Below, piece by piece: positions 9,284-32,065 of a stretch of DNA of 64,000 nucleotides (within the stretch, counting starts at the first letter, position 1; each line of letters begins with the position of its first letter). Position numbers and translations under genes: made by a program. The notes beneath the pieces are model-generated. The model was not told where the DNA came from, searched no databases, and was given only the letters and a program-made list of their open reading frames with translations. This stretch comes from an uncultured Candidatus Saccharibacteria bacterium. Lineage in GTDB: Bacteria; Patescibacteriota; Minisyncoccia; Phycocordibacterales; UBA2100. The stretch spans positions 79,499-143,498 of the forward strand of contig CAYYEX010000003.1 of assembly GCA_964471165.1 (NCBI GenBank), read 5' to 3'.

Positions 9284-9300
9284 GTATACCCCGTGAGATA
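9284..9300 (-). promoter_or_regulatory. copy of the 17-nt motif TATCTCACGGGGTATAC, oriented toward prfB. It ends 7 nt before the ATG.
   Basis: Exact motif on the minus strand. One of seven copies in the window. Confidence 0.5.
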
Positions 9301-9338
9301 TTTTGTGAATCTATCGCAACGAATCGAAAGATTGTGTT

Positions 9339-9355
9339 TATCTCACGGGGTATAC
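9339..9355 (+). promoter_or_regulatory. copy of the 17-nt motif TATCTCACGGGGTATAC, oriented toward the tRNA-Thr genes. Divergent from the prfB copy.
   Basis: Exact motif 64 nt upstream of tRNA-Thr(CGT). Confidence 0.5.
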
Positions 9356-9418
9356 AGTCGCATTGATTGAAAAAGCGAGCGGAATAGCGTATTCTCTCTC
9401 TGTTTCGTCTCAGTTTTC

Positions 9419-9494
9419 GCCACCTTAGCTCAGTTGGTAGAGCATCCCCTTCGTAAGGGGAGGGTCCCCGGTTCAAATCCGGGAGGTGGCTCCA
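9419..9494 (+). tRNA. tRNA-Thr (anticodon CGT), CCA encoded
   Basis: Acceptor stem gccacct pairs with aggtggc. Anticodon stem cccc/gggg with loop ttCGTaa. T-loop is ggttcaaatcc. The 3' end reads tCCA. Confidence 0.8.
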
Positions 9495-9549
9495 GGTTGT
9501 ACGCAAAAAATTTTTGTGTGGGCCTCTGTGTGTCGATGGTTTAGTTGGT

Positions 9550-9567
9550 GTAGTGCCGATGTAGCTC
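9550..9567 (+). repeat. 18-nt direct repeat gtagtgccgatgtagctc. This is a copy of the leader plus first 13 nt of tRNA-Thr(GGT); the second copy is at 9663-9680.
   Basis: Exact 18/18 match lying 113 nt upstream of the real tRNA 5' end. The intervening sequence contains the hairpin ctccgg-tgtaa-ccggag. Confidence 0.8.
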
Positions 9568-9667
9568 CCAGCTTCGCTCGTATGTGCTCGAGCTTCGCAG
9601 GACAAGCAGTAGGACTTTTCACTACCGCTTGCACTTCGAAGCTCCGGTGTAACCGGAGCGTAGTAGT

Positions 9668-9743
9668 GCCGATGTAGCTCAGTTGGTAGAGCACGTCCTT
9701 GGTAAGGACGAGGTCTCCGGTTCAATCCCGGACATCGGCTCCA
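9668..9743 (+). tRNA. tRNA-Thr (anticodon GGT), CCA encoded
   Basis: Acceptor stem gccgatg pairs with catcggc. Anticodon stem cgtcc/ggacg with loop ttGGTaa. T-arm is ctccggttcaatcccggac. The 3' end reads tCCA. Confidence 0.8.
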
Positions 9744-9747
9744 GGTT

Positions 9748-10407
9748 TTAGACGATGTGGTAGTCGCGCAGAGATTCGATTGTTGCTGTCAGCGACTCTT
9801 CTGTCAGCGACTCCGGAGTGATTGAGAGTCCCGCGAAGAGTTTCTGTTCAATTTCTACAAGAAATCCGCAATTCTTTTCGAACCGCTCGTCGTTTTCTCC
9901 ATAGTCTGAACGGGCGCGTGCCTTATAGCGCGCGTGGCCCTCGCACAAACGCGTTTCCATTGCAGTTATTCCGTAGGGTGCCGTGCGCTGGTCGGCGTAC
10001 TCGAGTATTTGTAGTTCGGTTGAACCTTCGCGCAGCACAGTCTCAGCCTTCGAAAAGCCCATCGCCTCAATAAGTCCGATAACCCTGTCTGACGCTCCAA
10101 TCTCCTTTGCTATCGCCGAGGTTGCCGTGTGCTCATCAAGGCCGTAGCGCTCCCCACAGTCTTTTTTTACCTCTTGCCAGTACTCAATACCTTTCTCTCC
10201 ATAAAATTCTGGCGGGAATTGCGAAAAGTCGGCTTTCATAATGTTGCCCATGTCATGAAGCAGTCCTGCACGGGTAACCGTGTCAGCATCTGCCTTCAGC
10301 TCACTCGCCATAGCGCGAGCGAGGGCGGCAACCCGCATTTGATGCTGCCGAAGGTTGGGCATAATTCTGTATTTTTCGTACGCCTGCCATGCTGTCATAC
10401 AGGGCAT
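9748..10407 (-). CDS. HD-domain phosphohydrolase
   Basis: H...LLHDMG motif (the HD signature) in a 219-aa protein. Confidence 0.6.
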   Translation of the reverse strand: MPCMTAWQAYEKYRIMPNLRQHQMRVAALARAMASELKADADTVTRAGLLHDMGNIMKADFSQFPPEFYGEKGIEYWQEVKKDCGERYGLDEHTATSAIAKEIGASDRVIGLIEAMGFSKAETVLREGSTELQILEYADQRTAPYGITAMETRLCEGHARYKARARSDYGENDERFEKNCGFLVEIEQKLFAGLSITPESLTEESLTATIESLRDYHIV

Positions 10408-10443
10408 GGTAACAGGGTAATTCTCAAAACCAATAGGAGGTTA

Positions 10444-10459
10444 CACCCCACGAGATAAA
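10444..10459 (-). promoter_or_regulatory. degenerate inverted copy of the 17-nt motif (minus strand TTTATCTCGTGGGGTGT) upstream of the HD-domain gene
   Basis: Matches the motif at roughly 14/17 positions. Divergent from the exact copy at 10493-10509. Confidence 0.35.
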
Positions 10460-10492
10460 CACCCCCGTCGTTCCGCATCATCTATTGCAGCC

Positions 10493-10509
10493 TATCTCAC
10501 GGGGTATAC
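10493..10509 (+). promoter_or_regulatory. copy of the 17-nt motif TATCTCACGGGGTATAC. It ends 7 nt before the ATG of the iron-permease-family gene.
   Basis: Exact motif. The TATACT element occupies a -10-like position for a near-leaderless transcript. Confidence 0.5.
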
Positions 10510-10516
10510 TAGTGGC

Positions 10517-10891
10517 ATGCATGAAATCTTTCGTCGAATTGCCCAAGAAGCAAGTCGCGCCATGGGAGCACCGTGGGCCTTTGCGCTCGCGTGTTTTATA
10601 ACACTCTTATGGGCACTCTCTGGACCATACTTCGGGTATTCCGACACCTGGCAGTTGGTAATTAACACCGCAACAACCGTACTCACCTTCCTTGCGGTCT
10701 TTCTCATTCAAAACACACAGAACCGCGATGCGCATGCCATACACTTGAAACTCGACGAGCTCATCAAAGCGCAGACCGAGGCACGCAACCAACTCATCGA
10801 TGTTGAAGACCTCTCCGATGAGCAGCTCGAAGTCCTCCAAAAGGAGTTTGTTCAATTCCGAGATGACTCAAACGCAGCCGAGCTCAAGTAG
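10517..10891 (+). CDS. low-affinity iron permease family protein (PF04120-like small 2-TM protein)
   Basis: SDTWQLVINTATTVLTFLAVFLIQNTQNRD...HLKLDELIKA closely matches the bacterial Fet4-like family signature as I remember it. Confidence 0.7.
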   Translation: MHEIFRRIAQEASRAMGAPWAFALACFITLLWALSGPYFGYSDTWQLVINTATTVLTFLAVFLIQNTQNRDAHAIHLKLDELIKAQTEARNQLIDVEDLSDEQLEVLQKEFVQFRDDSNAAELK

Positions 10892-10902
10892 CGCTTCAAC
10901 AA

Positions 10903-11433
10903 CTACTTGGTGAGTTCGTTTATCTTTGCCTCCACTTCCGAGATATTCATCGGTCCGTGTTGGTGGTAGAACACCTCGCCTCGGTCGTTGATAAACAACG
11001 TCTCAGGCATCGCATAGCCCTCAATAGATTTATAGAACGCATCGTCAGGATCAAGGAGGAACAGCATACTCTCTCCCACGGCGAGTGCGTCGGTAAACGG
11101 TTTTGCAACCTGCACCGACTCGGCACGATTTGGTGCCAAAATCTGGATGCGGTCTCCGTATTTCTTCTTCAGCGTGGTCAGATTGTTTATTTCGTCTGCG
11201 CAGTACGTGCACCACGTTGCCCACGAATGCACAACGAGAATTTCGCGTTTAAATTGCGATAGTCGCACGTCGGCACCGCTGTAGTCTTTCAGCACAAGTT
11301 CGTATTCTTGTGTGAAGTTCGTAATGCCGGAGCGCGGATGATAGCGCCAGTAGAAAAGTCCGAGCGCAATCAGCACAATGGCAGCGGCAGCAAGCGCGAT
11401 ACGTGTGGCTCGTGACTGTGGCATTACTCGCAT
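10903..11433 (-). CDS. TlpA/redoxin-family thiol-disulfide oxidoreductase, membrane-anchored
   Basis: N-terminal TM. Thioredoxin-fold CxxC motif in SWATWCTYCADE. Confidence 0.75.
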   Translation of the reverse strand: MRVMPQSRATRIALAAAAIVLIALGLFYWRYHPRSGITNFTQEYELVLKDYSGADVRLSQFKREILVVHSWATWCTYCADEINNLTTLKKKYGDRIQILAPNRAESVQVAKPFTDALAVGESMLFLLDPDDAFYKSIEGYAMPETLFINDRGEVFYHQHGPMNISEVEAKINELTK

Positions 11434-11434
11434 A

Positions 11435-13162
11435 TTAACCCGTCCAGTTGAAGAGGAGAATCGAGAAGTCGGCCAAGTTTACCGTATTGTCCTCGTTGAT
11501 ATCGGCATCGGGGTCATCCTCGTTCCAATGCGTGAGCAAAATCGAGAAGTCGACCAAGTTTACTTTTCCGTCTTTATTGATGTCGGAGCGATTGTCGTTA
11601 TCGACCTGTCGCGATGGAGCCTCCCCCACTCCCACGTACACAGGCGCGCTGTATTCACTCGAGGCAGATGGGGTAACTGTTTTTACTTTAATATCATACG
11701 TGCCACGTTTTAAATCTTTTGCGGGGATTGTAAACTCCCAGACTCCACCAGTGCCTGCAGCATTCTCTAGTGAGGTAGACGCTGTGTACTCCTTCGCTAC
11801 CCCCGCTGTGCCACTTGCCGGCACATCGCGAACAATGAGGTGAACGATGGTTCCCGGCACTCCAACGCCGGAGACACGCACACTCTCGGCCAGAGCAACC
11901 GATTCGGAATCGGGCGAAATCGTTGGTGAAAGCAGAACTCCGGTAATACCGTTTACCGTACCGGCATTCAACGTGAGCGTCGAAGAAAAACGTGACGACT
12001 TTCGTGCTCTTGCGTCAGTTGCAAAACTCACGAACGAATAGGTGCCTCGCTCAAGCGCTGAAATTGTTGTGCTAAATGCGCCGCTGCTTCCCGCAAGCAC
12101 GTTGGCCTGCTGCGTGCCGTCTTTCAATATTGTTACCGAGCTGTTTGCTGGTGCAAATCCGGAAATCTTTACCGTTGACTGGAACAGCAGTGAGCTGCCG
12201 CCCGCAAATGAGCCCGCTCCTCCAGAACCACCTGCCCCACCCGCTCCCGTAGACGCAACCCCCGGCGTATTGCCATCCGATGTCGTAACCGTTGGCGTGG
12301 TTGCGAGTGAAAACGTGTGCACGTAGTCGCTCTGTGCTGTTGCTCCGAATGTGTCGCGACAACGGATGTAGTACGAATAGGTTCCCCCGTCAGCGAGGCC
12401 GCTCACAACGCCGTAATGGAGTTGCTGGCCAACCGCTGAAAACGTGTTTGGCATTGATGCATACGTGATTCCAGAGGATGTGGCGTATTTGCAGGTCGCC
12501 ATAACATTTGTTTGAAATGAGAGCTCAACCATGGCGCTTCCAGCCGGAATTGTTCCTGTCGGGAGCGCATTTAATACCTGTGGCGCATTATCGGTGACGA
12601 CAGTCGTAAGCGTAATCGGGGTCACAACCACAAACATTGCTTTGGCGTCGTCGATTGGGGTTGCGCCGTTTGCCGTGTTCACACGAACGCGGTACGAACC
12701 AGGGAGCGCTGGGTTGACGGGCGATACATCTCCAACAACTTGGTGAGTCGCATTCGTGCCAAGAATAACGCGCACTGATTCATTTGCTGCAATGCCACTA
12801 CCCGATGAAAGCGCAATCGTGATTGAACCCGAGGCACCGCTTACAACCGTGACGCCGTCTTCGCTCGCACTCGGTAACGCTGCAAGGTTGTGTTCCGCAT
12901 ACGGTCCGCCGTTGGAGACTGCAACATCAACGTCGGTAAAATCAAATCCTCCGGGAATACTGAAGGCATCTTCGGGAGTAATGGTAATCGTTCCCGATGC
13001 GGGCACTGCGTTTCTGACCGTGAACGTAACAATATGGTTCGCGGCACTCGAAGGCACAGAAGTTGAAATGAGATCCGAAATCGGTGACATGTATCCCGCC
13101 TGTACAGTATGCAAAGCAATGAGCGGTAGCACGAACGTTATTACAACAAGAAAGCGCCGCAT
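11435..13162 (-). CDS. secreted Ig-like/beta-sandwich repeat protein with a C-terminal type-I dockerin domain
   Basis: Signal peptide MRRFLVVITFVLPLIALHTVQA. The ORF extends to 13429, but the start was chosen at 13162 just after the upstream stop. The C-terminal tandem DINKDGKVNLVDFSILL ... DINEDNTVNLADFSILLFNWTG forms canonical dockerin Ca-binding repeats. Confidence 0.7.
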   Translation of the reverse strand: MRRFLVVITFVLPLIALHTVQAGYMSPISDLISTSVPSSAANHIVTFTVRNAVPASGTITITPEDAFSIPGGFDFTDVDVAVSNGGPYAEHNLAALPSASEDGVTVVSGASGSITIALSSGSGIAANESVRVILGTNATHQVVGDVSPVNPALPGSYRVRVNTANGATPIDDAKAMFVVVTPITLTTVVTDNAPQVLNALPTGTIPAGSAMVELSFQTNVMATCKYATSSGITYASMPNTFSAVGQQLHYGVVSGLADGGTYSYYIRCRDTFGATAQSDYVHTFSLATTPTVTTSDGNTPGVASTGAGGAGGSGGAGSFAGGSSLLFQSTVKISGFAPANSSVTILKDGTQQANVLAGSSGAFSTTISALERGTYSFVSFATDARARKSSRFSSTLTLNAGTVNGITGVLLSPTISPDSESVALAESVRVSGVGVPGTIVHLIVRDVPASGTAGVAKEYTASTSLENAAGTGGVWEFTIPAKDLKRGTYDIKVKTVTPSASSEYSAPVYVGVGEAPSRQVDNDNRSDINKDGKVNLVDFSILLTHWNEDDPDADINEDNTVNLADFSILLFNWTG

Positions 13163-13163
13163 A

Positions 13164-14009
13164 CTATAAATCTTTGACGCAGCGGAATCCGGCAGCCTCG
13201 CCTGCGAATGACGAAGGCACCGTAATGTTGATTGCGTATTGTCCTGCATCGGCCTGACTATTCCAGTAGCCGCCGCGCAAAATACCGCGCGTGTCGGTTG
13301 GGTCGAGCCAGAAATAATCGTTGAAAAACGATTCATCGGGAGTGTCGTGGTTAGTCGCAACCGGTGTGCCGTCTCCATCGATTCCCGTAATGTATCCCTC
13401 TTCAGGAAGCTTTTTTCCTTTGAACTCACCGTCGGTCACTGTTTCTTGCATCCACTCCCACGCGTTTCCAATCATGTCATACGCGCCCGACGGCGACACA
13501 CAATCTTTTCGTACGCCTGTTTTGTCCACCGCACCGCTGCCACGCAGACCCACGTTGCAGCTATCACTGGTGAGCGTTTCGCTGTCGGGCGTACCGAGCG
13601 CAGCTTTGTACCACTCAGATGCGCTCGGGAGCCGCTTGCCTGCACGCGCGCACGCATATTCCGCCTGGTCACGCGAAATGTTTCTCCACGGAGACTTTTT
13701 TGCAACGCTCGTCGGCTTACATGCCGAGATGGCAAGGTTATCGCTCGTTTGTGCTTTACTCGCAGGGTCTAGCGATGGACAGGAATCATTGGCAGATGCT
13801 TCATACGCGTCGATGCAGAAACCACCCCCGGTAGTGCCCACAAACGCCATTCCACTCGGGCATCTGCTCGCTTGCCCAGCAACTGCACTAAACGCCGCGC
13901 CGAGCATGGAGTTCTGCGGGGTGTCGCGATTATCAAATGCATTCAAACCGACTGTCGTGAATACGACCGTGCATACTGTCACAACGATCCATCGCAGGAG
14001 CGCTTTCAT
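13164..14009 (-). CDS. formylglycine-generating enzyme (FGE/SUMF1) family protein, secreted
   Basis: GNAWEW, RGGYWNS and GFRCV motifs of the FGE-sulfatase domain. N-terminal signal or anchor. Confidence 0.75.
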   Translation of the reverse strand: MKALLRWIVVTVCTVVFTTVGLNAFDNRDTPQNSMLGAAFSAVAGQASRCPSGMAFVGTTGGGFCIDAYEASANDSCPSLDPASKAQTSDNLAISACKPTSVAKKSPWRNISRDQAEYACARAGKRLPSASEWYKAALGTPDSETLTSDSCNVGLRGSGAVDKTGVRKDCVSPSGAYDMIGNAWEWMQETVTDGEFKGKKLPEEGYITGIDGDGTPVATNHDTPDESFFNDYFWLDPTDTRGILRGGYWNSQADAGQYAINITVPSSFAGEAAGFRCVKDL

Positions 14010-14040
14010 TCACTCTAGTATAACGTGGCCGATGGATATG

Positions 14041-14445
14041 CTACGCAATCATCCGACGTCCGCGTCGGAAATCCATATAGTAGTTTGCGGCAACAAGAAC
14101 GAGCACAAGGATGCTGACGCAAAAACTTGCGGCCGCCAATGTGCGCGTACTGGTGAGCGACCCGCCCGAGATAGCTGCCACAGTTGCTTCGCGCGCATCA
14201 AGATCTGCCTGTTTTTGTGCGAGCTGCTCTGCTGCAGTGTTATACGGATTTGCCGGCACTCCAGCTGTCATGCCAATAACTGCGCTTCCCGCCATAGAGG
14301 CAGCGGTGTTTACCAGGACCTTCGGCGAGTCAATTGATGTGGCATACATAAACAGCGCAAGGGCAATCACAATCGCTGTGCGTCGAATCACCTCTTTTTC
14401 GTGTGAGACTGTATTTGGGCGCTTCTTCATGCATGTATTATGCAA
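14041..14445 (-). CDS. small 2-TM membrane protein
   Basis: ORF with two hydrophobic helices. Overlaps the upstream gene by 8 nt, so it is likely co-transcribed. Confidence 0.45.
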   Translation of the reverse strand: MHNTCMKKRPNTVSHEKEVIRRTAIVIALALFMYATSIDSPKVLVNTAASMAGSAVIGMTAGVPANPYNTAAEQLAQKQADLDAREATVAAISGGSLTSTRTLAAASFCVSILVLVLVAANYYMDFRRGRRMIA

Positions 14446-15511: not shown

Positions 15512-15559
15512 GGTTGCTGATCGAAAAAAGATTATGTGATTACTCTACCACGGCCCCTG

Positions 15560-15597
15560 CATGCAACATCCCCGCTACACTGCGGGGATGTTGCATG
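15560..15597. other. perfect 16-bp hairpin (catgcaacatccccgc-tacact-gcggggatgttgcatg) in the intergenic region between two surface-protein genes
   Basis: Seen in the sequence. Lies between the stop at 15618 and the next start at 15511. It may be a terminator or attenuator without a clear T-tract, or an operator. Confidence 0.6.
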
Positions 15598-15617
15598 AAA
15601 ACAAGACTTTTTCGAGC

Positions 15618-16763: not shown

Positions 16764-17014
16764 ATAAATAGAACTTTTTTGGCTTCTTTAATAAGCGTGT
16801 TAATTGCGCGAATGTGTCTGCACCCTAGAGAGAAAATACGCGTCCACCTGCTATCGCTCGACCGAAGCAGCTAAAAACGTACGGGGCCTGATAAACTCGC
16901 ATGTGTAAAGTATACGGCATCCTGTTGACAAAGAAGTTGATATCAAGCCAAACCATGTGGATAACGGCCTAAAAACGTGGATTTCTGGGTGGATAACACT
17001 GTGGAGAGCGTGTT

Positions 17015-19671: not shown

Positions 19672-19703
19672 AACAAGGAAATGTGATGGAATTTATACAC
19701 AGT

Positions 19704-21041: not shown

Positions 21042-21043
21042 GG

Positions 21044-21917: not shown

Positions 21918-21920
21918 ATG

Positions 21921-22817: not shown

Positions 22818-22866
22818 AGAAGTGTTATTCGTTGATGTATTTATAAAGGTGTTCATATTTTTTTGG

Positions 22867-25800
22867 TTATCTATCCGTCTCGATATATATTCTGTTAACT
22901 CCGATTTGCGCGGCATTCACGAGGGTGTTGGACGCGTTGCTCATACACGCGTGCGCGACCAACATTTGTGTATTTGCCGGCAGGTCGGTATTCACACTAC
23001 CCTCTTGTAACTTGAGTCCGGTGTTGATGTCGTCGAGCTGCCAATACACAACAGTATCGTTCGGCTTTGCAAAAATATAGAACGCGTATCCTTGATTCGA
23101 TGCGAGTGCTGGTTGATTCGATATCGGCGAAACGCTCGCAAGGCCAGTCGCGTCGTTCGTAATGAACGAAATCGAGGTGGAGCCAGAATTGACCGCAAAG
23201 CCAATCGTACTCGTTCGGATGGTCGGATCAGATGTGCAGAGTGCAGTCGTGCTCGTGGAGAAGCCTACGAACAGTCGGTCGTTTGCAGTCCATGTATCGG
23301 TACCGACGCGCGCCGCGAAGAAGAAGCCTCCCTGCCCTGTACTTGCTCCACGGAAGAACATCGCCTCGGTTCGGGTGCCGACCTGTTGGTTGAGTGTAGT
23401 TACAACACTCGCGAAACGAGAACGACGCTGATTCGTGTAGAAGTTTGTTGTAGTTGGTAACACAATTGCGGCTGTACCAAGGTTTGCGCCAACAGTGCCC
23501 GTCCATACTCCAGCAGCGGCACCGGGATTGAAGTATGTGAGGTTATTCTGCCAAATTGCAGACTGGAATGGAGTATCGACACCGGAGGGCCCCATCCATT
23601 TGGGAACCACACGATTTGCAATTGCCTTTGCGTAAATATCGAGCCCAGAAGTAGGGGTGGCTTGGTCCGTTGTTGTGGCAAGATTCAACACACCAGTATT
23701 CCCCACCGAGAAGAGTGTTTCACCTGTACTGGATGAGATGGTGAATATGTCAGTTGCTTGATTTGCAGCTGCGGTGAGTGCCAGGCGATTAGCGGAAAGA
23801 CTCCAGTTGAAATTCGAGGTCGCGGTGAATGAGCCGTCGACGTTGCGGAATTGCACATCACCCGTAGAACTTGCTGCTTGACCCCCGCAGGTTACCCACG
23901 AACCGTTGTAGCAACGGAACGCCGCTGTATTACTGTTGTAATACATTGCACCGTTCACACCGCTCGATGGGTCGCCCGGTGTATTTTTGGTATCGAGCAC
24001 GAGCCATGTCGGTGTACCACCACCAGTTCCAAGGGTGACTCGGTTATTGATTGTATCGATGCCGAGCACTTGCGGAGTTGATGTGCTACCAAATGTGAGG
24101 CCTGCAGTCGACGAGAAGTTGGATTGGAGCACAAGCGCGTTGGTCGATGTGGACTGAATGGTGCGTGCATAGAATTGTGTTGCTTCCATGAGACTCGACG
24201 ACGCATTGCCAAACTGCTGCAAGCCGCTCCAGACGTTGGGATTTGAAAGGTTGAGCGATATACCAACTGCGCCACTGCCGGGAGAAACAGTGAGTGTTGT
24301 GTTCGTTGCGGTAAGCGAGTTGACGGTGCACACGCCATTGATTGCATAGCATCCGCTCTCCATATTAAATCCTGCCGCACTCGAGGTGGAGGTGAGACGA
24401 ATTGAAAGCGCCTGCAAATTGCCATTCGCCTGCACATTTCCTGAGAATGTTGACGTCGAATTCGTTCCCGTAACATTTATAAATCCTTGGATGGTTGACG
24501 TGCCGGCTACGTCGCCCTGAATCGTGGTTGTTGCGGTAGTTCCGGCAGAGAGCGAGCTTGCACCAACGTCGGTCGCGGCGAGCGACGCAGCGAGCACATT
24601 TGCAAACGTTGAAGCGCCGGTTGCCTGCACATCTATCAGATTGAGTTTTGTGTACATAGTGGAACCAAGCGTTGAGAAGTTGGCCACGTTTCCGATTGAG
24701 AAGATTGAACCCGGTGCAGATGTGGCGATGCCCATGCGGTTCGAGAAGTATGATTTGCCAAACACTTCGAGCATCGCGTCATCGGTTGTTGTTGCTGAGT
24801 TGCCTACGATTACGGCGTAGTTCGGATCCGATGGATAAATCGCCAAGTCGTCGGTCGTTGTTGAGAAGAATCCACCGCCTCCACCGCCGCCTCCACCGCC
24901 CTGCAAGTCGGCCCCCCATGCTGGCAATCCGCCTGCTATTTTCAACACCGCACCATTGCCGCCCGCAGGTAGTGGAACAAGCGTTGTTCCATTGAGTGCA
25001 TAGAGAATATCGCCCGCCGTATACGACGTATTGCCGGTGCCGCCTCGTGTCTCATCCAATGTTCCGACTGTGTCGCTTATATAAATACCGAGCGTCGTAG
25101 TCGCCACGAGGTCGTAACCACCAAGACCATCACCCACGAGCAATTGTCCCCGTGTTGGCGCGGTCGACGTGCCGGTGCCACCATTTGATATACCGAGCAC
25201 GCCAGTTACGTCATTTGCAAGGTCAACGAGCGCCGCAACAACCGACCCGGCAGTGGCTTTCAAGATGCCGGTCACTTTTCCAAAGGTGAAGCTATTCGAT
25301 GCAACAAGATTCGATGATGATGCGACCCCTGTTGCAGCAAAGTTTGTTGATGTTGCGTTGCCGAACATTGCGTTTGCAAATGTTTGTAGCGCCGTGAAAA
25401 TGTTTGCGGTAAACGATTTTGCAACTGTGGTGGATGCGCCGACGAATTCATTCACACGTGACTCCGTGTAATACAAATTCTGTACTCCTTCGACAAGCGA
25501 GTCGGTTGTTGTAGCCAAGCCAATGGATGATGTTGCAACGAGCACATAGCCACCGGCACCGTCGCCCATCAAGAGCTGTCCGTAGGATGGCCCTGAACTC
25601 AAACCGGTACCACCATTGGTAACTGCCATCGTTCCCTGAAACGGACCGTATTCATACACAACCACGATGCCGCTGGCACCGTTGCCGCCGGCTGCGCCCG
25701 TGGCAGTGTCGGCAAGTGCCGCGCCACCACCGCCAGCTCCGTATGTAGTTGCATTCGAGCCCGCGCTCTGTGTGGCAGTGACAACAACCGAACCACCATC

Positions 25801-28800
25801 ACCACCACCACCCCAGTAGCTTGAACCGCCGACACCGCCGAACGCAGTATTCCCCACTTGAGAGTTACCATCCTGACCGTTTCCGCCTGCAACCTGCACA
25901 TCTCCGGCCGTAGCACTTCCCCCGACGCCTCCGGCAAGTGTTCGCGGACCAGCAACAGTATCAGCGGAAACCGCACCCACGCCGCCACTTCCACCACCCG
26001 CGCGGCCAAGCGCTGGACCAAACGATGAATGACCACCCCCGAGTCCGGTGCCTCCGGCTGCGGCGGTACCTCCTGTGCCGCCCGCACCAACTACGACCTG
26101 CACGGAGGTCGTTGCAGTTAAATCAACGTGCAGAAATGCTGTTGCACCCGCTCCTGCGCCACCAGCCGGCACCTCAACAGTTGTCCCATCGCTGTCCGCT
26201 CCTCCGCCCCCGCCTCCGCCTCCAGTTACTATTACTTGTGCAGATGTTGCGCCGGCAGACGGTGTGTACGTAGTTGTGCCGACAGCACTAAATGTTTGTA
26301 TTGCAATCAGTTCGCCACTACCACCTCCCCCTCCTGGCCCGGAAGAAATACACACGCCATCTATTGAGTAGCATCCGTCAGTAATATCGAAACCGTTTGA
26401 ACCCGTTGATGTAGCGGTTGTTGTAAGCGAGCCAATTGTCGCATTCCCGAACGATGCGGTATTTGCACGCGTTTCGGTTGACGACGAGAACGTGGTGAAC
26501 AATGTTGTCGTTGTTGCGTTCGTTGCCGTTATATTTGCAAAGGCATTCGTGCCCGTGTACGTGTTGTTGGTGTTCGTTTTCGGAAGCGCAACGGTATTCT
26601 CGACGAAGTAGTTTGCCGATGTGGTGGAGAATGCATTTCCTTGATTTTGTCCGAGGAAATACGCAGTTGATGTTGTGGAAAATGCGAGACCAAGTGAGGA
26701 GAAGTGTGAGGCGCTGGTTGTAGAGAAGAAGTTGTTCTGTGTTTTCCAATAGTCGGTCGAGGATGTGGAGAAGAAACTGCTCTGAGTTTTCCAGAAATCA
26801 CTCGAGGTGGTGGAGAAAAAGAATCCTTTGTCCACAAGTCCGAGCGATGATGTCGAAAGACGGGAATTGAACGAACCGAAATCCGACGAGCCCAGGTACC
26901 CGCTTGTGGAGCTATCGGCCTGCTGTACCGAGAGCGTTCCTGCACTGAACTGCACCGGGCCGCTGACGGAAACCCCTTGCACGATACCGCCCGCTCCAGT
27001 GTAGAGCATTGAACTTTGAATTCCCGAGATTGTGAGATTTGTCGTCGAAGCGATAGCGGTTGAGAGCGATGTGGTCGTTGCTCCAGTGGCGGAAATATTT
27101 CCAAATGTATTCACGCCAGTGAAGGTGTTGTTGGTAAATGTTTTTGCAATCGTGCTCGAAGCCCCCACGAACGTATTCACCAAACCATTCGAGTAGTACT
27201 TATTCGTTGCTCCTTCAGCGAGAGCATCCGTGGTCGTGCCCGCAATTACAGAAGCCACGCGCGTTGGTGTGTAGTACTGGTTTGAACCCTCGGCGAGATC
27301 TGACGTGCTCTTTGTTGCGAGCCAGGCATTCGACGATGTGGTTGCCCAACGGAACTGGGTAGAGTCCCAAAACGCCACCGAGGTGCTCGAGAAGAAGTAC
27401 CCATTGTCGTAGGTTGAAAGGTCGTATGCAAATGACGAGGTTGAATGGAAGTTGCGCTGTGTTTTCCAATAATCAGCAGACGAGGTTGAATAGCTCTCCC
27501 CCGGGTTCTGCGAGTTAAAATACGCAGCCGACGTTGTGCTAAACGCAAGACCGGCCGCGGCAAAGCTCGACGCGCTCGTCGAAGAGAAGAAGAAGCCTTT
27601 GTCTATACCATTGAGGTATGTCTGCACGCGCGAATCCTGGTAGTACCTGTTGGTACTACCCTCTGCGATAGCATCGGTTGTTGTGGCAGAAAGTGCGGCT
27701 GCAACACGATTCACCGTAAAATATCTATTCGTTGAACCTTCTGCGAGTGCATCGGTGGTGGTTGCGTACCACTGCGCAAGCCCCATGTATGCCCCGAGGT
27801 CACCAAACGCCACGAGTCCGAGCGAGGAAGTTGATACCTGCGTCCAGGTATTTCCCGGCCCTCCTATTAATAGAGCGTTTTGGGATACGGAGTTGAGGCC
27901 GGTACCGCCGCTTGTACCCGAGAGCGCATTACCGAGACTGAGCGTGCCGATTGTGGCGGAACCCGCTGAAGCGGTGTTGGTGTTGATATTCGTGGTTGAT
28001 GCAGTGCCCGTGTAGAGCGTGGTTGTCGTCGCGTTGGTTGCAGAGACTGTGTTGCCAGTAAATGCCCCAGCAATGAGCGAGCCGATAGTTGCGATGTTCG
28101 AGAACAAGCTCGTGGACGATGCCGTGCCTGTGTACGACGATGTCGTCGTAGCGCCAGTAGCTGTTACATTTTGAAACGAGTTTGTTCCCGTGTATGTGTT
28201 GTTTGTAAACGTTTTTGGAATGGTAGTTGATGCGCCGACGTAATATTCGGCCGATGAAGTGGAGAAACCATTTGCCTGATTCTGTGACAAGAAGTACGAA
28301 GCCGAAGTTGTTGAGAACGCGAGTCCGGCCGATGCGAAATTGGATGCAGACGTGGTGGAGAAGAAAAATCCTTTGTTTACGCCGTTGAGATATGTCTGCA
28401 CGCGTGCGTCAGCGTAGTACTTGTTTATTGCACCTTCTGCAAGCGCATCGGTTGTGGTTGCATACCACTGACTCAGTCCGAACTTCAAATCAAGCGCGTT
28501 CTGTAAATCTGTTTGTGCAGAAAGTGTCCCCGTAATTGAGCCCCAGACTAAGGACCCCGATGAGATTCCGAGCGACGACGTTGCCACCAGGTCGTAGCCG
28601 CCCGCATTATTCCCGACAAGGACTTTTCCATATGTAGGCGCTGTCGAAGTGCCCGTGCCGCCATTTGAAATACCAAGTACTCCGGTTACATCGGAAGCGA
28701 GATTGAGGAGTGACGAGCTCACAACACCTGCCACCGACTTGAGCACGCCTGTTGCTTTCCCAAACGTGAATCCGTTCGAGACAACGAGATTCGACGTGGA

Positions 28801-31335
28801 TGCATTCCCTTGAATCATTACTGAGTTTGTACTGGATGCCAACGACACCGTATTCGTGCTCGTAGAAAGGGTCCAATAGCCACTGTCGCCGCTTGCTCCC
28901 CCGCCGTAGCTCTCGAGCGCGATTGACGCGTCAACAAATTTTGGCATGACGAGCACCGAGATGGTGCCAACTCCCGGACCGCTAAACGATTGCAATGCCT
29001 GGCCAAGCGCGTAGCCCGATTCTGAAAGCTTTACGCCGACACCGGCAACATCGGACGCCGCGATGAGATCGCCAGCATTGATGTCGCCGTTGGCGTCACT
29101 TACCGTGGTGCGAATCACACCCGCGAATCCAATGATGTAGGCGTTGGGCTCTCCCTCAAGGCTACCGTTACCAACGAACGCCGCATTATCTGACACGACA
29201 CCAATGAGCGCTTCGCCGGCAGTCGCCTTGCGGTATTCACCGCTGGAGTTCAACGACACGACGTCGCCAACAGCTGCCGATTCACTCAGCTGCATAAATT
29301 CAGCAAAGTCTGCTGCGCCGGATGTTTGCGTGATACCCGTGCCCGCTGTAGAGAGTCGCAAGCTGCCAACACCTCGACCACCCGTATCTGAACCAGCTCC
29401 TACTCCTGCAAAGTATTCAATAAAGCGCGGGCACGTTGTTCCAGATGTACAGGCAGTCGCGTACGGAGTGCGAATGTTCAGACGCAGCACGTTGTTGCCG
29501 GAAGAGAGCGTGTTGTTGTCGTTAGAGATTGCAAACACAGCAGTTCCTGTTGCACTTGTGGGGCCGGTCGCCTGTCCCATAACAGAGACGCGGTACGAGG
29601 GATTCGCAACACCAATGGAAAGCGGTCCGTTGATGGTAGACGTTGCAGTTGTTGAGGTGGATGTGAACGAGCCAAATGAAGCACTCAACGACGAAAAGAG
29701 ATTAGAAAAGATGGACGTTGAGGTCGCTCCTACCATGGTGATATTCGCAAACGAATTCACGCCGATAAACGAGTTGTTTGCGAATGTTTTTGCGATTGAG
29801 GTGGAGCCCGCAATGAAACTATTCACAAGCGAATCATCGTAGTATCGGTTGATTGAACCCTGTGCGAGTGCATCGGTCGTTGTGCCAGCAATCACTCCCG
29901 CAACACGACTCGGCGTGTAGTAGAGATTCGTTCCCTCGGCGAGATTGCTCGTCGATTTAGTTGCAAGCCATGCATCCGAGCTTGTTGTTGCCCAGCGGAA
30001 CTGTGTGGAGTCCCAGAACGCAACCGACGTGGTGGAGAAAAAGTACCCCTTGTCGTAGGTGGAGAGGTCATATGCCAACGACGATGTTGAATGAAAGTTG
30101 TTTTGACTCTTCCAGTAATCTGCCGATGTTGTGGAGAACGATGAGCCGGGATTCACTGAATTGAAGTATTGAGCTGAAGTTGTGGAGAATGAGTTGGCAA
30201 GATAATACGCACCTTCCCGACCGTCGAGTGTTCCCGTCCAATCACCAGAAGTGTTCAGCGTGAGTACGCCGCCAGAGTTTTGCAGTCCCGCTCCGGCGAG
30301 CGAGGTAAAGTATTCGGTTCCTCCGAGACCAAATACGGTTGTGTTCAATGTTGTAGATGTGGCGTTATCAAACTTCGCTCCATTCTGCACTTCAAACTTC
30401 GCAAGCGATGTCGTCGCGGTTCCGCCAACGAGCACCTGATTCGAAGTCGTGGCAGGGCGAACTCCGCTGTTATTGAAAAACGTCCAGTTACCATCGGCGC
30501 CACCGCCACCCCCGGAAAGATCGGTGCCGCATTCAAACTGGCGCGTTGCAGCATTCCATACAAGCTTGTCGTTTGTGCCTGAGCACGAGGTGAGCCCCGC
30601 GCCCGTAAACGTTCCTCCCACATTGAGGTTGGTCGACGAAGCGTTGGTGAGTGTGGTACTCGCGAGCGTGGCATTTGTTACCGTAATATCCGCAAATGCA
30701 TTCACACCGATGAACGTGTTGTTTGCGTATGTTTTCGCAATTGTGCTCGAGGCGTTTACGTAGGCCGCAGCGGAAGACGTTGAGAACGAATTCGCCAAGT
30801 AGTACGCTCCGTTTCTTCCTCCGAGCGTTGCTGAGTTGATTGCGTAACCGGAGGCGGTTACGCGCTGACGCGGCGAGAGATTCTCAAAGCTCTCAGCGCC
30901 GTCGCCCGGGGCGCAGGTGGCACCAACCTTGGTTGCAACTTCAACATTGAGATACACCGCGTCGTTGTCCTCGAAGTTAAAGTCGAGCGTATCTCCGCCA
31001 GCATTCGTGTCTCCGACACCCGCGTTGAAGATACCGTTGCGTACTGAGACGGTCATCGTTGATGGCGCTGCTGTCGGCCAGAGCTTCGAGCCCGCACCAA
31101 CCGTAACGTTGTCGTAAAGGGCAAACTTTACGCAGTAGTCGGTTCCCGTTCCACCAAGAAGCGTCCCCGAGGAATTCATGAGTCGTCCTTGGTAGTTCAT
31201 GATGCGCGGAACTCCAGTTGCGGCGAGCGCAACGCTCGCGCTCGTGCCAAACACAAACATCACGCATGAAAGAATCGCGATAAGTCGCGTTATTCCTCGA
31301 ATCATGCTTACCCATGATTGCGTCTGTGTGTTCAT
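22867..31335 (-). CDS. giant secreted repetitive surface protein (about 2822 aa) with fibre-like Gly/Ser/Thr/Ala/Asn-rich repeats
   Basis: The signal peptide MNTQTQSWVSMIRGITRLIAILSCVMFVFGTSASVALA was chosen as the start (the ORF extends to 31533). Recurrent units include VLGISNGGTGTSTAPT.G.LLVG..GGYDLVAT and LAEG.N.YYT. An internal super-repeat of about 880 aa occurs twice. A distinct C-terminal ~300-aa domain is present. Confidence 0.7.
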   Translation of the reverse strand: MNTQTQSWVSMIRGITRLIAILSCVMFVFGTSASVALAATGVPRIMNYQGRLMNSSGTLLGGTGTDYCVKFALYDNVTVGAGSKLWPTAAPSTMTVSVRNGIFNAGVGDTNAGGDTLDFNFEDNDAVYLNVEVATKVGATCAPGDGAESFENLSPRQRVTASGYAINSATLGGRNGAYYLANSFSTSSAAAYVNASSTIAKTYANNTFIGVNAFADITVTNATLASTTLTNASSTNLNVGGTFTGAGLTSCSGTNDKLVWNAATRQFECGTDLSGGGGGADGNWTFFNNSGVRPATTSNQVLVGGTATTSLAKFEVQNGAKFDNATSTTLNTTVFGLGGTEYFTSLAGAGLQNSGGVLTLNTSGDWTGTLDGREGAYYLANSFSTTSAQYFNSVNPGSSFSTTSADYWKSQNNFHSTSSLAYDLSTYDKGYFFSTTSVAFWDSTQFRWATTSSDAWLATKSTSNLAEGTNLYYTPSRVAGVIAGTTTDALAQGSINRYYDDSLVNSFIAGSTSIAKTFANNSFIGVNSFANITMVGATSTSIFSNLFSSLSASFGSFTSTSTTATSTINGPLSIGVANPSYRVSVMGQATGPTSATGTAVFAISNDNNTLSSGNNVLRLNIRTPYATACTSGTTCPRFIEYFAGVGAGSDTGGRGVGSLRLSTAGTGITQTSGAADFAEFMQLSESAAVGDVVSLNSSGEYRKATAGEALIGVVSDNAAFVGNGSLEGEPNAYIIGFAGVIRTTVSDANGDINAGDLIAASDVAGVGVKLSESGYALGQALQSFSGPGVGTISVLVMPKFVDASIALESYGGGASGDSGYWTLSTSTNTVSLASSTNSVMIQGNASTSNLVVSNGFTFGKATGVLKSVAGVVSSSLLNLASDVTGVLGISNGGTGTSTAPTYGKVLVGNNAGGYDLVATSSLGISSGSLVWGSITGTLSAQTDLQNALDLKFGLSQWYATTTDALAEGAINKYYADARVQTYLNGVNKGFFFSTTSASNFASAGLAFSTTSASYFLSQNQANGFSTSSAEYYVGASTTIPKTFTNNTYTGTNSFQNVTATGATTTSSYTGTASSTSLFSNIATIGSLIAGAFTGNTVSATNATTTTLYTGTASTTNINTNTASAGSATIGTLSLGNALSGTSGGTGLNSVSQNALLIGGPGNTWTQVSTSSLGLVAFGDLGAYMGLAQWYATTTDALAEGSTNRYFTVNRVAAALSATTTDAIAEGSTNRYYQDSRVQTYLNGIDKGFFFSSTSASSFAAAGLAFSTTSAAYFNSQNPGESYSTSSADYWKTQRNFHSTSSFAYDLSTYDNGYFFSSTSVAFWDSTQFRWATTSSNAWLATKSTSDLAEGSNQYYTPTRVASVIAGTTTDALAEGATNKYYSNGLVNTFVGASSTIAKTFTNNTFTGVNTFGNISATGATTTSLSTAIASTTNLTISGIQSSMLYTGAGGIVQGVSVSGPVQFSAGTLSVQQADSSTSGYLGSSDFGSFNSRLSTSSLGLVDKGFFFSTTSSDFWKTQSSFFSTSSTDYWKTQNNFFSTTSASHFSSLGLAFSTTSTAYFLGQNQGNAFSTTSANYFVENTVALPKTNTNNTYTGTNAFANITATNATTTTLFTTFSSSTETRANTASFGNATIGSLTTTATSTGSNGFDITDGCYSIDGVCISSGPGGGGGSGELIAIQTFSAVGTTTYTPSAGATSAQVIVTGGGGGGGGADSDGTTVEVPAGGAGAGATAFLHVDLTATTSVQVVVGAGGTGGTAAAGGTGLGGGHSSFGPALGRAGGGSGGVGAVSADTVAGPRTLAGGVGGSATAGDVQVAGGNGQDGNSQVGNTAFGGVGGSSYWGGGGDGGSVVVTATQSAGSNATTYGAGGGGAALADTATGAAGGNGASGIVVVYEYGPFQGTMAVTNGGTGLSSGPSYGQLLMGDGAGGYVLVATSSIGLATTTDSLVEGVQNLYYTESRVNEFVGASTTVAKSFTANIFTALQTFANAMFGNATSTNFAATGVASSSNLVASNSFTFGKVTGILKATAGSVVAALVDLANDVTGVLGISNGGTGTSTAPTRGQLLVGDGLGGYDLVATTTLGIYISDTVGTLDETRGGTGNTSYTAGDILYALNGTTLVPLPAGGNGAVLKIAGGLPAWGADLQGGGGGGGGGGFFSTTTDDLAIYPSDPNYAVIVGNSATTTDDAMLEVFGKSYFSNRMGIATSAPGSIFSIGNVANFSTLGSTMYTKLNLIDVQATGASTFANVLAASLAATDVGASSLSAGTTATTTIQGDVAGTSTIQGFINVTGTNSTSTFSGNVQANGNLQALSIRLTSTSSAAGFNMESGCYAINGVCTVNSLTATNTTLTVSPGSGAVGISLNLSNPNVWSGLQQFGNASSSLMEATQFYARTIQSTSTNALVLQSNFSSTAGLTFGSTSTPQVLGIDTINNRVTLGTGGGTPTWLVLDTKNTPGDPSSGVNGAMYYNSNTAAFRCYNGSWVTCGGQAASSTGDVQFRNVDGSFTATSNFNWSLSANRLALTAAANQATDIFTISSSTGETLFSVGNTGVLNLATTTDQATPTSGLDIYAKAIANRVVPKWMGPSGVDTPFQSAIWQNNLTYFNPGAAAGVWTGTVGANLGTAAIVLPTTTNFYTNQRRSRFASVVTTLNQQVGTRTEAMFFRGASTGQGGFFFAARVGTDTWTANDRLFVGFSTSTTALCTSDPTIRTSTIGFAVNSGSTSISFITNDATGLASVSPISNQPALASNQGYAFYIFAKPNDTVVYWQLDDINTGLKLQEGSVNTDLPANTQMLVAHACMSNASNTLVNAAQIGVNRIYIETDR
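26800..30700 (-). repeat. two copies of a ~2.6 kb diverged tandem super-repeat inside the giant gene, about 75% nucleotide identity (approximate bounds)
   Basis: The stretch AFWDSTQFRWATTSS[D/N]AWLATKSTS is encoded at about 29.94-30.01 kb and again at about 27.30-27.37 kb. The flanking protein blocks are colinear. Confidence 0.6.
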
Positions 31336-31342
31336 GATAATT

Positions 31343-31732
31343 TTAGGTTTTTTGTTCGAGACGCTGCATTGCGCGCTGATTGAGTCGCTGGTCGAGCGAC
31401 GTTGAAAAGATGTAAAACACGAGCAGCATGAACGCCACACTGATGACAATGAGGGCAACGGAGAGTCGTTTAACGAGACGCGGCGATTCAATCTCGCGCT
31501 GCAATACCTCGAGCATCGTAGGAGTTCCTGCATTTTTGCCCGTAACCTTGCTCTTCTTGTCCCCCATGTAGCTCTTGAGAGCCTCTTCCGTTGTCATCCA
31601 TGCAACGTTGGCAAACACCTGCTTGCCGGGGAGTTTTCCGCTCCGAATGAGTTGTCCAACATAGTCTGGCGTGTAGCCCGACATCGCTGCCGCTTCTCGA
31701 AGTGAAATGTATTCTGATTTTTTTGACATCAT
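31343..31732 (-). CDS. small HTH-domain protein with a C-terminal TM helix (129 aa), immediately upstream of the giant gene
   Basis: The N-terminal stretch YISLREAAAMSGYTPDYVGQLIRSGKLPGKQV looks like an excisionase/MerR-type helix-turn-helix. The C-terminus has the hydrophobic helix LSVALIVISVAFMLLVFYIF. Confidence 0.5.
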   Translation of the reverse strand: MMSKKSEYISLREAAAMSGYTPDYVGQLIRSGKLPGKQVFANVAWMTTEEALKSYMGDKKSKVTGKNAGTPTMLEVLQREIESPRLVKRLSVALIVISVAFMLLVFYIFSTSLDQRLNQRAMQRLEQKT

Positions 31733-31934
31733 ACGTAAATCTCGGGGGTCGATATTGGCTTAATTTCTCAATCTCGAGGGTCGAGATGCCACTGCCCAAT
31801 TGTATAATCCCTATGTTTTTAGCCTATTTTTCGATGTGGACAACTTTTTATCTAAATCTGACTTTTCAGTGATTCCTGACGACTTGTTTTGCAACTTTTG
31901 GGCACGTATTTTGCTTGTCTGAGGCAGGTTCGCC

Positions 31935-31950
31935 TATACCCCGCGGGATA
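31935..31950 (-). promoter_or_regulatory. variant copy of the motif (minus strand TATCCCGCGGGGTATA) in the divergent promoter region
   Basis: Matches the consensus at 13/16 positions. Confidence 0.35.
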
Positions 31951-31985
31951 CACGTGCCTGAATTTGTCGACCTTTCTAGTCGGGC

Positions 31986-32013
31986 TATCTCATGGGGTAT
32001 ACCCCGTGAGATA
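31986..32013. promoter_or_regulatory. 28-nt near-perfect palindrome TATCTCATGGGGTATACCCCGTGAGATA, two overlapping motif copies sharing the GTATAC core
   Basis: Seen in the sequence. One mismatch between the arms. Lies between divergent genes. Confidence 0.55.
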
Positions 32014-32048
32014 GAAAAATCTGAAATAGTTGGTATATCTAGTCCGGG

Positions 32049-32065
32049 TATCTCATGGGGTATAC
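32049..32065 (+). promoter_or_regulatory. copy of the motif TATCTCATGGGGTATAC followed by the RBS GAGGAGG (32069-32075) and the ATG at 32083
   Basis: The motif ends 17 nt before the start codon. The spacing suits a -10 element plus a short leader. Confidence 0.5.

Follow-up and report, generated by a model that had tools for sequence, protein, structure and literature searches.

A 17-nt motif of Patescibacteria as the probable end of a miniature inverted-repeat element located in leaderless promoters and related to units encoding a GIY-YIG nuclease

A 64,000-nt stretch of DNA of an uncultured Candidatus Saccharibacteria bacterium (contig CAYYEX010000003.1, positions 79,499 to 143,498; hereafter the window) carries a recurrent 17-nt motif, TATCTCAYGGGGTATAC, in its divergent intergenic regions. 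In our judgement this motif is probably the outer end of a miniature inverted-repeat element residing at the TATA (TAYA) target within the -10 boxes of leaderless genes, and the larger units of the same family hold a gene for a GIY-YIG protein. This reading is supported by the repeat architecture and the link to start codons, by orthologous promoters with and without the element, by one insertion in which the target is duplicated, and by GIY-YIG genes that lie between the repeats, with repeat and protein co-varying. To our knowledge, almost nothing is known about the promoters and the mobile DNA of the candidate phyla radiation (CPR, Patescibacteria), whose members cannot be grown alone.

The window, which belongs to a metagenome contig of 173.5 kb, has a G+C content of 52% and contains six exact copies of the 17-mer, whereas dinucleotide-shuffled sequences contained a mean of 0.02 and none of 100 shuffles reached six. 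The exact copies are located as follows:

9284-9300, minus strand
9339-9355, plus strand
10493-10509, plus strand
31986-32002, plus strand
31997-32013, minus strand
32049-32065, plus strand

Two further copies, at 10441-10457 and 31934-31950 (both on the minus strand), are degenerate, with three mismatches each. All eight are placed within the window's three intergenic regions in which the coding strand switches from minus to plus, and in each of these regions a minus copy lies to the left of a plus copy, with inner ends 35-38 nt apart. No further credible copies were found elsewhere in the window, where 12-mer matches with two mismatches were at chance level; a 12-nt end with one mismatch (TCTCTCATGGGG, 32698-32709, plus strand) lies within the coding region of gene 32083-32859, has no partner arm and is probably a chance match. 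A first-pass annotation of the window had already described the recurrence of the motif, its divergent pairs and the 28-nt palindrome at 31986-32013, in which two copies overlap via GTATAC, and all of these were recovered. Its count of seven copies, five of them exact, had to be changed to six exact and two degenerate ones, the latter lying 1-3 nt away from the positions it had assigned to them. The distance of 7-17 nt between the motif end and the ATG, also proposed there, applies to three copies (7 nt for the release-factor gene starting at 9276 as well as for the iron permease gene at 10517, 17 nt for the gene starting at 32083); the remaining ones are separated from the next gene by 34 nt (HD-domain gene), 63 nt (tRNA-Thr) and approximately 200 nt or more (31732).

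An exact-match scan covering one genome per species returned at least 115 matching stretches. About 108 of the 115 listed have Patescibacteria-type or unassigned labels of metagenome-assembled genomes (MAGs), i.e., Kaiserbacteria, Nomurabacteria, Campbellbacteria, Paceibacterota, Parcubacteria, third party annotation (TPA) assemblies labelled "Saccharibacteria" and some records named only "bacterium" (all taxon labels used here are those of the public records). The seven others, all with single matches, were set aside (six labelled with other phyla and one with Komeilibacteria), and later inspection revealed real units in one of them, L092 (comparison loci are designated by L numbers), and a probable decayed pair in another, the Patescibacteria record L043. 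The motif was found almost only in Patescibacteria/Paceibacteria MAGs, in line with its earlier description as lineage-specific, and the window's nearest relatives among the fetched loci are likewise MAGs labelled as Paceibacteria/Patescibacteria. The fetched loci contained 144 exact copies, 66 copies with a single mismatch, which affects position 17 in 43 of them, 14 with two and 17 with three, followed by noise. A phage origin was rejected, as viral contigs gave only 14 single, unpaired matches, a number estimated to be near chance level.

The motif may be divided into a 12-nt terminal inverted repeat (TIR; CCCCRTGAGATA ... TATCTCAYGGGG), the apparently duplicated target TATA and one flanking base. 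Amongst 131 arrays there were 85 pairs of outward-facing arms ('-+'), 32 solo arms and, for the rest, longer arrays. The start-to-start offsets fell into separate classes of -11 (11 cases), 23-29 (14), 50-56 (48) and 84-94 (33), the last three of which correspond approximately to enclosed interiors of about 8, 35 or 72 nt; the -11 junction is the 28-nt palindrome, which recurred in 11 cases among other genomes and was the only short offset encountered. With a length of 32-100 nt and 12-nt inverted ends, the units have the size and ends of miniature inverted-repeat transposable elements, or MITEs, with four units in the window and several in many MAGs. Their interiors show no relation from one genome to another, and units of a single genome usually differ in them as well. 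The shortest units (offset of about 28) of L008, L010, L036 and L092 have a conserved interior of 11-12 nt, GCGGC(T/G)(T/A)(T/A)(T)GCC, which extends the hairpin. In Rfam searches only tRNAs reached the gathering threshold, and nothing overlapped the units at E-values up to 1.

For 66 pairs both flanking genes could be assigned, and 45 of these pairs lie between co-directional genes (27 '++' and 18 '--') versus 21 between divergent ones, so that in the former one arm faces the 3' end of the upstream gene. When ascertainment was controlled, 40 of 48 gene-facing arms were exact over 16 positions versus 27 of 38 non-facing ones; both kinds are well conserved, and this conservation goes beyond what promoter use alone explains. 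A stronger conservation of gene-facing arms was also considered and is not relied on, as the difference of 0.13 versus 0.51 mismatches shrinks to 0.21 versus 0.37 without the ascertainment bias. Helical phasing of the pair spacings was discarded as well, given that 11, 25, 52 and 89 bp amount to about 1.05, 2.4, 4.95 and 8.5 turns and the phase is inconsistent.

Insertion was traced by comparison of filled and empty orthologous sites, one of the latter being present in the window:

14017-14022, minus strand: comparator empty site, plain TATACT separated by 7 nt from the ATG (14009) that starts gene 13164-14009

The sequence preceding this gene reads ...CACGT TATACT AGAGTGA ATG (14009-14041) and holds no element, whereas its ortholog in L029 is preceded by ...GCGT TATAA CCCCATGAGATA - 69 nt - TATCTCACGGGG TATAAT TTCTGTA ATG, with the element at the equivalent TATA. 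The release-factor promoter is element-free in L022 (plain TGC TATACT GCCCGC ATG) and is filled in the window, L109, L090 and L091 by units differing in size and interior. Altogether, 18 orthologous empty sites were collected, and most of those read by eye have TATAnT 6-9 nt before the ATG. Another insertion, of 39 nt (a 35-nt unit plus TACA) and in frame, was found within the GIY-YIG gene of L092, where the sequence is CAGTTC TACA CCCCGTTAGATG GCGGCGTTGCC TATCTCATGGGG TACA CCGGA, while four intact homologs have TT(T/C) TAYA, once, at the same point. It follows from this in-gene insertion that the element proper consists of the 12-nt ends and the interior, and that the 4-bp TAYA appears to be duplicated. 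Furthermore, the units of all 11 short-offset junctions have exactly one TATA in common, as predicted by insertion into the TATA flanking another unit, and this explains the palindrome at 31986-32013. In the MAG CAYPGH01, an identical 101-nt unit, interior included, is present on three unlinked contigs with unrelated flanks. The flanks TCTA/TCTA and CTTA/CCTA, also seen at units, are on the side of target duplication.

An open reading frame (ORF) of at least 60 aa begins at motif position 25, 26 or 27 in 62 of 145 exact copies, neighbouring positions having 1-2 each, and ATG is enriched at positions 25-27; in 97 of 141 copies the motif is followed by T (position 18), which completes TATAnT. 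No -35-like or UP-like signal was found upstream of the motif. Among 766 called genes of L001-L115 and the window, TAnnnT occurs 209 times at 6-8 nt before start codons, over a background of about 10-25 per position, and of the element-free promoters of this leaderless type, 49% show T at -15 and 52% show G at -14 (extended -10, TGn). Leaderless organisation is common in this lineage, TATACT being a frequent form of the -10 box and TGn being present in about half. Since the geometry of the motif matches that of the element-free leaderless promoters, its TATAC(T) end seems, by position, to behave as the -10 hexamer 6-8 nt before leaderless start codons, and the start of a transcript fired from TATAnT would coincide with motif position +25. 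The resemblance to an extended -10 element noted in the first-pass annotation is thereby borne out for TATAC(T); GGGG is not a canonical TGn, though the G at -14 is kept. Similarly, the proposed promoter element is indeed tied to promoters, but its TATCTCAYGGGG part would not be a promoter or operator selected in place, being the TIR of a dispersed insertion element.

The two kinds of arms differ behind the TATA. Of 101 gene-facing arms, 78 carry T at position 18 (TATAnT, 77%); of 51 non-facing ones, 39 carry C there (76%) and only 4 carry T, and 22 have A at position 19. On the opposite strand, the flank of a non-facing arm reads 'TGn' and then TATA, i.e., the upstream half of an extended -10 promoter. 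Solo arms face a gene in 27 cases and do not in 4. The motif was present at 32 of 101 divergent junctions of the motif-bearing loci and at none of 69 once the junction that had prompted the retrieval of the locus was excluded; motif-free junctions have ordinary TTGACA-N17-TATAAT or TATAnT near the ATG. A general housekeeping promoter of the lineage was rejected on these grounds, i.e., the motif at about one third of divergent junctions, none among the non-ascertained ones and ordinary sigma-70 promoters there. The 203 proteins encoded downstream of the motif form 171 sequence clusters, and 148 of the proteins match 150 Pfam families (examples are MreB, RecA, TGT, PheS, enolase and CorA), which led us to reject a narrow regulon too.

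Coding relatives of the short units were identified in L059, L064 and L079. Here the two arms of a '-...+' pair are separated by about 300 nt, and nothing but an ORF of 80-86 aa, running in either orientation, lies between them. Its product is a GIY-YIG catalytic domain (PF01541, E-values from 1e-13 to 1e-16), otherwise matching T5orf172 only, and among solved structures a UPF0213 protein comes nearest in sequence, with a weak match (E-value 0.0018). The family of these proteins of about 80 aa comprises more than 1,500 protein clusters and, where the source names the organism, it belongs to a Patescibacteria group. Units of about 300 nt with motif ends enclosing one GIY-YIG gene were recognized in L059, L064, L079, L092, L116-118, L182, L196 and L198. 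In L196 and L198 such a unit is inserted on the opposite strand within a run of minus-strand genes, and in the former its left TATA is completed by AT to TATAAT, with 8 nt between this hexamer and the ATG of a gene for 2,389 aa. No classical transposase was found between distant arms in the sampled loci, only the GIY-YIG units of about 300 nt.

A metagenome scan for GIY-YIG relatives gave at least 80 loci; among those listed, the closest have exact canonical ends and about a dozen have one-mismatch variants. Without presupposing the motif, inverted repeats tightly flanking the GIY-YIG ORF were found for 58 of 75 testable metagenomic genes versus 3 of 75 with shuffled flanks. The related repeats form a series (CCCCGTGAGATA, CCCCGTTAGATA, CCCCGTTAGAGA, ATCCCGTTAGAGACA, CCCCGTGAAATA, CCCCGTGGAATA, CCCTGTGRAATA and others), and the distance between repeat variants tracks the distance between proteins (Mantel Spearman r = 0.32, reached by 0 of 999 permutations, 51 loci). 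Moreover, variant GIY-YIG genes have short non-coding pairs of their own variant nearby, with 12 copies in 148 kb and, by estimate, fewer than one expected. We infer that the GIY-YIG protein may be what recognises and mobilises the repeat ends. In the literature, no description of the motif sequence or of bacterial GIY-YIG genes bracketed by inverted repeats was found by a search that left most subscription journals outside, so that an earlier description is possible.

The repeat end of L116 (2476-2503), L117 (824-853) and L196 (9976-10003), read inward together with the next two bases, gives TGAGATAAT, an extended -10 situated 7-8 nt before the enclosed GIY-YIG ATG; it is absent from L059 and from the variant repeat families. 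The GIY-YIG gene itself may thus be leaderless and driven from its own inverted repeat.

Taken together, the following course of events is proposed. The element proper would be CCCCRTGAGATA - variable interior (about 8, 35 or 72 nt, or one 80-aa GIY-YIG gene at about 300 nt) - TATCTCAYGGGG, and its target would be TATA (TAYA), apparently duplicated on both sides. Many genes of these Paceibacteria appear to be leaderless, with TGnTATAnT 6-8 nt before the start, and the element would enter the TATA in which it is found. On the gene side, the TATA copy and the original 'nT' would then re-form the -10 hexamer behind the element end, with the G at -14 kept, whereas the far side would keep the old upstream half TGn-TATA and, reading outward as TATAnC, would be promoter-dead. 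Units could also insert into the TATA flanking another unit, producing the 28-nt palindrome. As essential genes (release factor, PheS, RecA, MreB) carry the element, the junction must presumably be promoter-competent. Tentatively, we suggest that an unrecognised class of autonomous mobile elements may be represented by the units of about 300 bp; their nuclease would read the ends and the TATA, and, with their non-coding derivatives, such elements would settle specifically in the leaderless -10 boxes of CPR bacteria and supply a promoter junction that works.

Several observations weigh against this interpretation. Interiors are shared only in CAYPGH01 (three contigs) and in a tandem pair of L080; being almost never common within a genome, which is unusual for a recently active MITE, they imply that the ends are kept by something besides youth. 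Decayed relics are also scarce in the fetched loci, and unshared interiors together with few decayed ends, for which simple recent transposition does not account, point either to dead copies being deleted quickly from these streamlined genomes, or to the ends being under selection or homogenisation. As TATA is palindromic, target duplication and a longer inverted repeat tie in most units, the direct-versus-inverted test on non-TATA flanks was mostly tied too, and the outermost 4-6 nt of the CCCCGTTAGATA variant family have the character of an inverted repeat, not of a duplication. No target duplication beyond the arms was found at any boundary or length tried. The protein, of about 80 aa, is a GIY-YIG domain alone, with no separate DNA-binding domain, and we know of no described prokaryotic transposase of the GIY-YIG fold. 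In the window, the full TATAnT is present in only two of the eight arms, with TATACA in two more. Finally, the loci were chosen for containing the motif, and the genes were called with a crude, home-made ORF and codon-usage caller.

Three other explanations were considered. The motif could be a lineage-specific composite promoter selected in place, with TATCTCAYGGGG acting as an upstream element for a sigma factor, housekeeping or alternative, or for a general transcription factor, instead of a -35 box, and with the pairs acting as bidirectional promoters. Such a promoter would fit the start codon found 6-8 nt after TATAnT in about 40% of copies, the missing -35 signal, the diverse housekeeping genes downstream, the 27 to 4 preference of solo arms and the occurrence of the motif in all three divergent regions of the window. 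Nevertheless, we regard it as unlikely: 45 of 66 pairs are co-directional, and the arm facing a 3' end preserves a 16-nt core despite its C at -7 (exact in 27 of 38 cases); the spacing classes are discrete and not consistently phased on the helix; ordinary TTGACA-N17-TATAAT or TGnTATAnT promoters serve other junctions of motif-bearing genomes, and the motif was present at none of 69 divergent junctions that were non-ascertained; orthologous genes of relatives work with a plain -10; and one copy lies within a coding sequence. Less probable still is a hairpin comparable to extragenic repeats of the repetitive extragenic palindrome/bacterial interspersed mosaic element (REP/BIME) type, acting on RNA or single-stranded DNA as a stabiliser, terminator or processing site, with an incidental promoter geometry. 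The units do fold into long hairpins, the whole first unit of the window (unit A below) forming one with a 17-bp stem (DNA, -19.4 kcal/mol, z -7.0), many units lie between co-directional genes and mini units with the GCGGCTTTGCC spacer are near-perfect hairpins; however, no U-tract follows the stem, some units directly follow an intrinsic terminator (L044, L022), no Rfam family was matched, and neither the start-codon peak at positions 25-27 nor the T-versus-C contrast at position 18 is predicted by this explanation.

The inverted copies and the perfect 28-nt palindrome had earlier been taken to suggest binding of a dimeric regulator, for which the product of ORF 31343-31732 would be a candidate; palindromes and paired sites would then bind a dimer or tetramer. 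To an operator of this kind, for a repressor or an activator, we give very little credence. A single arm is asymmetric, without internal dyad symmetry, pair spacing varies over -11, 25, 52 and 89, and the palindrome is explained by two abutting element ends with one common TATA; ORF 31343-31732, which had been described as helix-turn-helix (HTH) protein, has no Pfam domain, an HTH included. The motif also brackets a nuclease gene and precedes functionally unrelated genes across many genomes and species, which argues against a local regulator. Insertion of an element with promoter-proximal target remains our preferred reading, and the units of the window are described below in its terms.

The eight arms of the window form four units, designated A to D:

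9284-9300, minus strand: left arm of unit A; TIR 9289-9300 (TATCTCACGGGG read outward), TATA 9285-9288, flanking C 9284
9301-9338: interior of unit A, 38 nt, unconserved in spacer comparison
9339-9355, plus strand: right arm of unit A; TIR 9339-9350, TATA 9351-9354, hexamer TATACA
10441-10457, minus strand: left arm of unit B, decayed; TIR 10446-10457 with one mismatch, flank TACA
10458-10492: interior of unit B, 35 nt
10493-10509, plus strand: right arm of unit B; TIR 10493-10504, TATA 10505-10508
31934-31950, minus strand: left arm of unit C; TIR 31939-31950 with two mismatches, TATA 31935-31938
31951-31985: interior of unit C, 35 nt
31986-32013: 28-nt palindrome; right TIR of unit C 31986-31997, shared TATA 31998-32001, left TIR of unit D 32002-32013
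32014-32048: interior of unit D, 35 nt
32049-32065, plus strand: right arm of unit D; TIR 32049-32060, TATA 32061-32064, hexamer TATACA
8392-9276, minus strand: release-factor gene with PCRF and RF-1 domains (Pfam), predicted as a leaderless gene with its promoter at the left arm of unit A
10517-10891, plus strand: low-affinity iron permease gene (Pfam), predicted as a leaderless gene with its promoter at the right arm of unit B

The left arm of unit A, extended by T 9283, forms TATACT, followed by 6 nt and the ATG (9276) of the release-factor gene, and it is predicted to be the promoter that drives the release-factor operon leftward; in the opposite direction, TATACA of the right arm possibly drives two tRNA-Thr genes, the first starting at 9419, 63 nt downstream. 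In unit B, the right arm gives TATACT (10505-10510), then 6 nt, then the ATG (10517) of the low-affinity iron permease gene, an arrangement found also at the ortholog of L029. The hexamer of the left arm, TGTAAC, is not a -10 box and faces the HD-domain gene, whose ATG (10407) is 34 nt away, and it is unlikely to serve that gene. The left arm of unit C has the hexamer TATAGG, without T at -7, and the right arm of unit D is followed by a GAGGAGG stretch, with the ATG (32083) 17 nt past the arm. T is missing from position 18 in all four arms of units C and D (TATAGG, TATACC, TATACC, TATACA), which makes a promoter role doubtful for them. The interiors of these two units are about 57% identical (counted by eye), and given this likeness, units C and D may be an old tandem duplicate.

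With regard to the neighbouring genes, the release-factor gene (8392-9276) encodes only 294 aa and its PCRF match begins at profile position 85 of 194, so its N-terminal domain seems to be missing; the ortholog of L091 (298 aa translated) matches PCRF from the identical profile position. No frameshift ORF was found upstream of this gene, which appears to be leaderless. The long single-strand gene runs of the window are dominated by giant ORFs at 22867-31533 (minus strand, 2,888 aa) and 47717-64000 (minus strand, more than 5,400 aa, running off the window), and gene 32875-33657 encodes cohesin and dockerin domains.

The window also has a GIY-YIG gene of its own (1876-2121, 81 aa, 44-46% identical to the repeat-bracketed family), directly before tRNA-Gln (2131-2202). 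No inverted repeats were found around it; it is bracketed by a perfect 23-nt direct repeat (1813-1835 and 2129-2151) equal to the 5' end of tRNA-Gln plus the two preceding bases. It looks like an insertion of a different kind, into or beside a tRNA gene, with duplication of the 5' part of the tRNA. Another element was noticed in L196 (16900-17780), i.e., a 235-aa gene with a weak match to Y1 transposases (PF01797), flanked on both sides by the palindrome CCATCAAGGCG(A/T)CGCCTTGATGG. This is a separate element of a Parcubacteria genome, similar to IS200 or to REP with its REP-associated tyrosine transposase (RAYT), and unrelated to the motif.

As regards spread, three copies of the family were found within about 450 nt of L092 (3480-3900 of CAWCER010000013.1, labelled Bryobacterales), i.e., a GIY-YIG unit whose gene contains a mini unit, and a further mini unit. 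They adjoin a gene for a VirD4/TraG coupling protein, whose few named close homologs (70-92% identity) come from Bryobacteraceae, Nitrospiraceae and Pyrinomonadaceae MAGs. This suggests that the elements of L092 are carried on a conjugative element outside CPR, although mis-binning of the contig is conceivable, and such a copy hints at a spread beyond CPR. GIY-YIG genes are among those predicted as transferred from Patescibacteria to other bacteria (PMC12455944).

If the interpretation presented here is true, the sharpest "promoter motif" of these genomes is a transposon end, and motif-based predictions of CPR promoters and regulons are misled by it. The TATA of leaderless -10 boxes would then be a safe target, where insertion rebuilds the promoter and selfish DNA is tolerated in streamlined genomes, and a stand-alone 80-aa GIY-YIG nuclease with its co-evolving inverted repeats would be a new partnership of repeat and enzyme, functionally parallel to that of RAYT and REP doublets forming hairpins (REPINs). 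Should the larger units in fact be autonomous, they would be among the smallest known mobile elements, and part of the promoter set would be built on selfish DNA.

The likeness to the REPIN/RAYT system includes short extragenic repeats in inverted pairs, discrete spacings, interiors less conserved than the arms, tandem clusters, and one small protein gene bracketed by inverted repeats that co-vary with the protein. However, the bracketed gene encodes an 80-aa GIY-YIG protein (PF01541) in our case and a Y1 HUH transposase (PF01797) in RAYT, a single arm is not palindromic here, there is evidence for a 4-bp target duplication, and the elements are located in -10 boxes at the 5' ends of genes, not at 3' ends. 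Correia repeat enclosed elements (CREE) of Neisseria and other MITEs are similar in length (about 50-150 bp), terminal inverted repeats and discrete length classes, and Correia elements have a TA-containing target and -10-like end sequences which create or modify neighbouring promoters. There is no sequence relation between them and the units described here, whose interiors are unconserved between copies, whose position is tied to leaderless start codons, whose coding relative is a GIY-YIG nuclease and not a DDE transposase, and whose family extends over many Patescibacteria lineages instead of a single genus. Rickettsia palindromic elements are likewise small palindromic repeats, capable of in-frame insertion into genes, as is the 39-nt insertion of L092, but here the in-gene copy is exceptional (one seen) and most copies are intergenic, at promoters. 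Free-standing GIY-YIG homing endonucleases of the I-TevI family have in common with our proteins the catalytic domain, the selfish context and long, asymmetric recognition-like sequences, whereas the proteins described in this work, of about 80 aa, have the catalytic domain only, without a DNA-binding module, and their chromosomal genes lie between inverted repeats and have non-coding derivatives at many loci, unlike the genes of homing endonucleases. Finally, the extended -10 (TGn) leaderless promoters of Actinobacteria and Deinococcus-Thermus have the same -10 hexamer 6-8 nt before the start, no -35 box and G at -14, but in our case the 12 nt upstream of the hexamer are the invariant repeat end TATCTCAYGGGG and not TGn.

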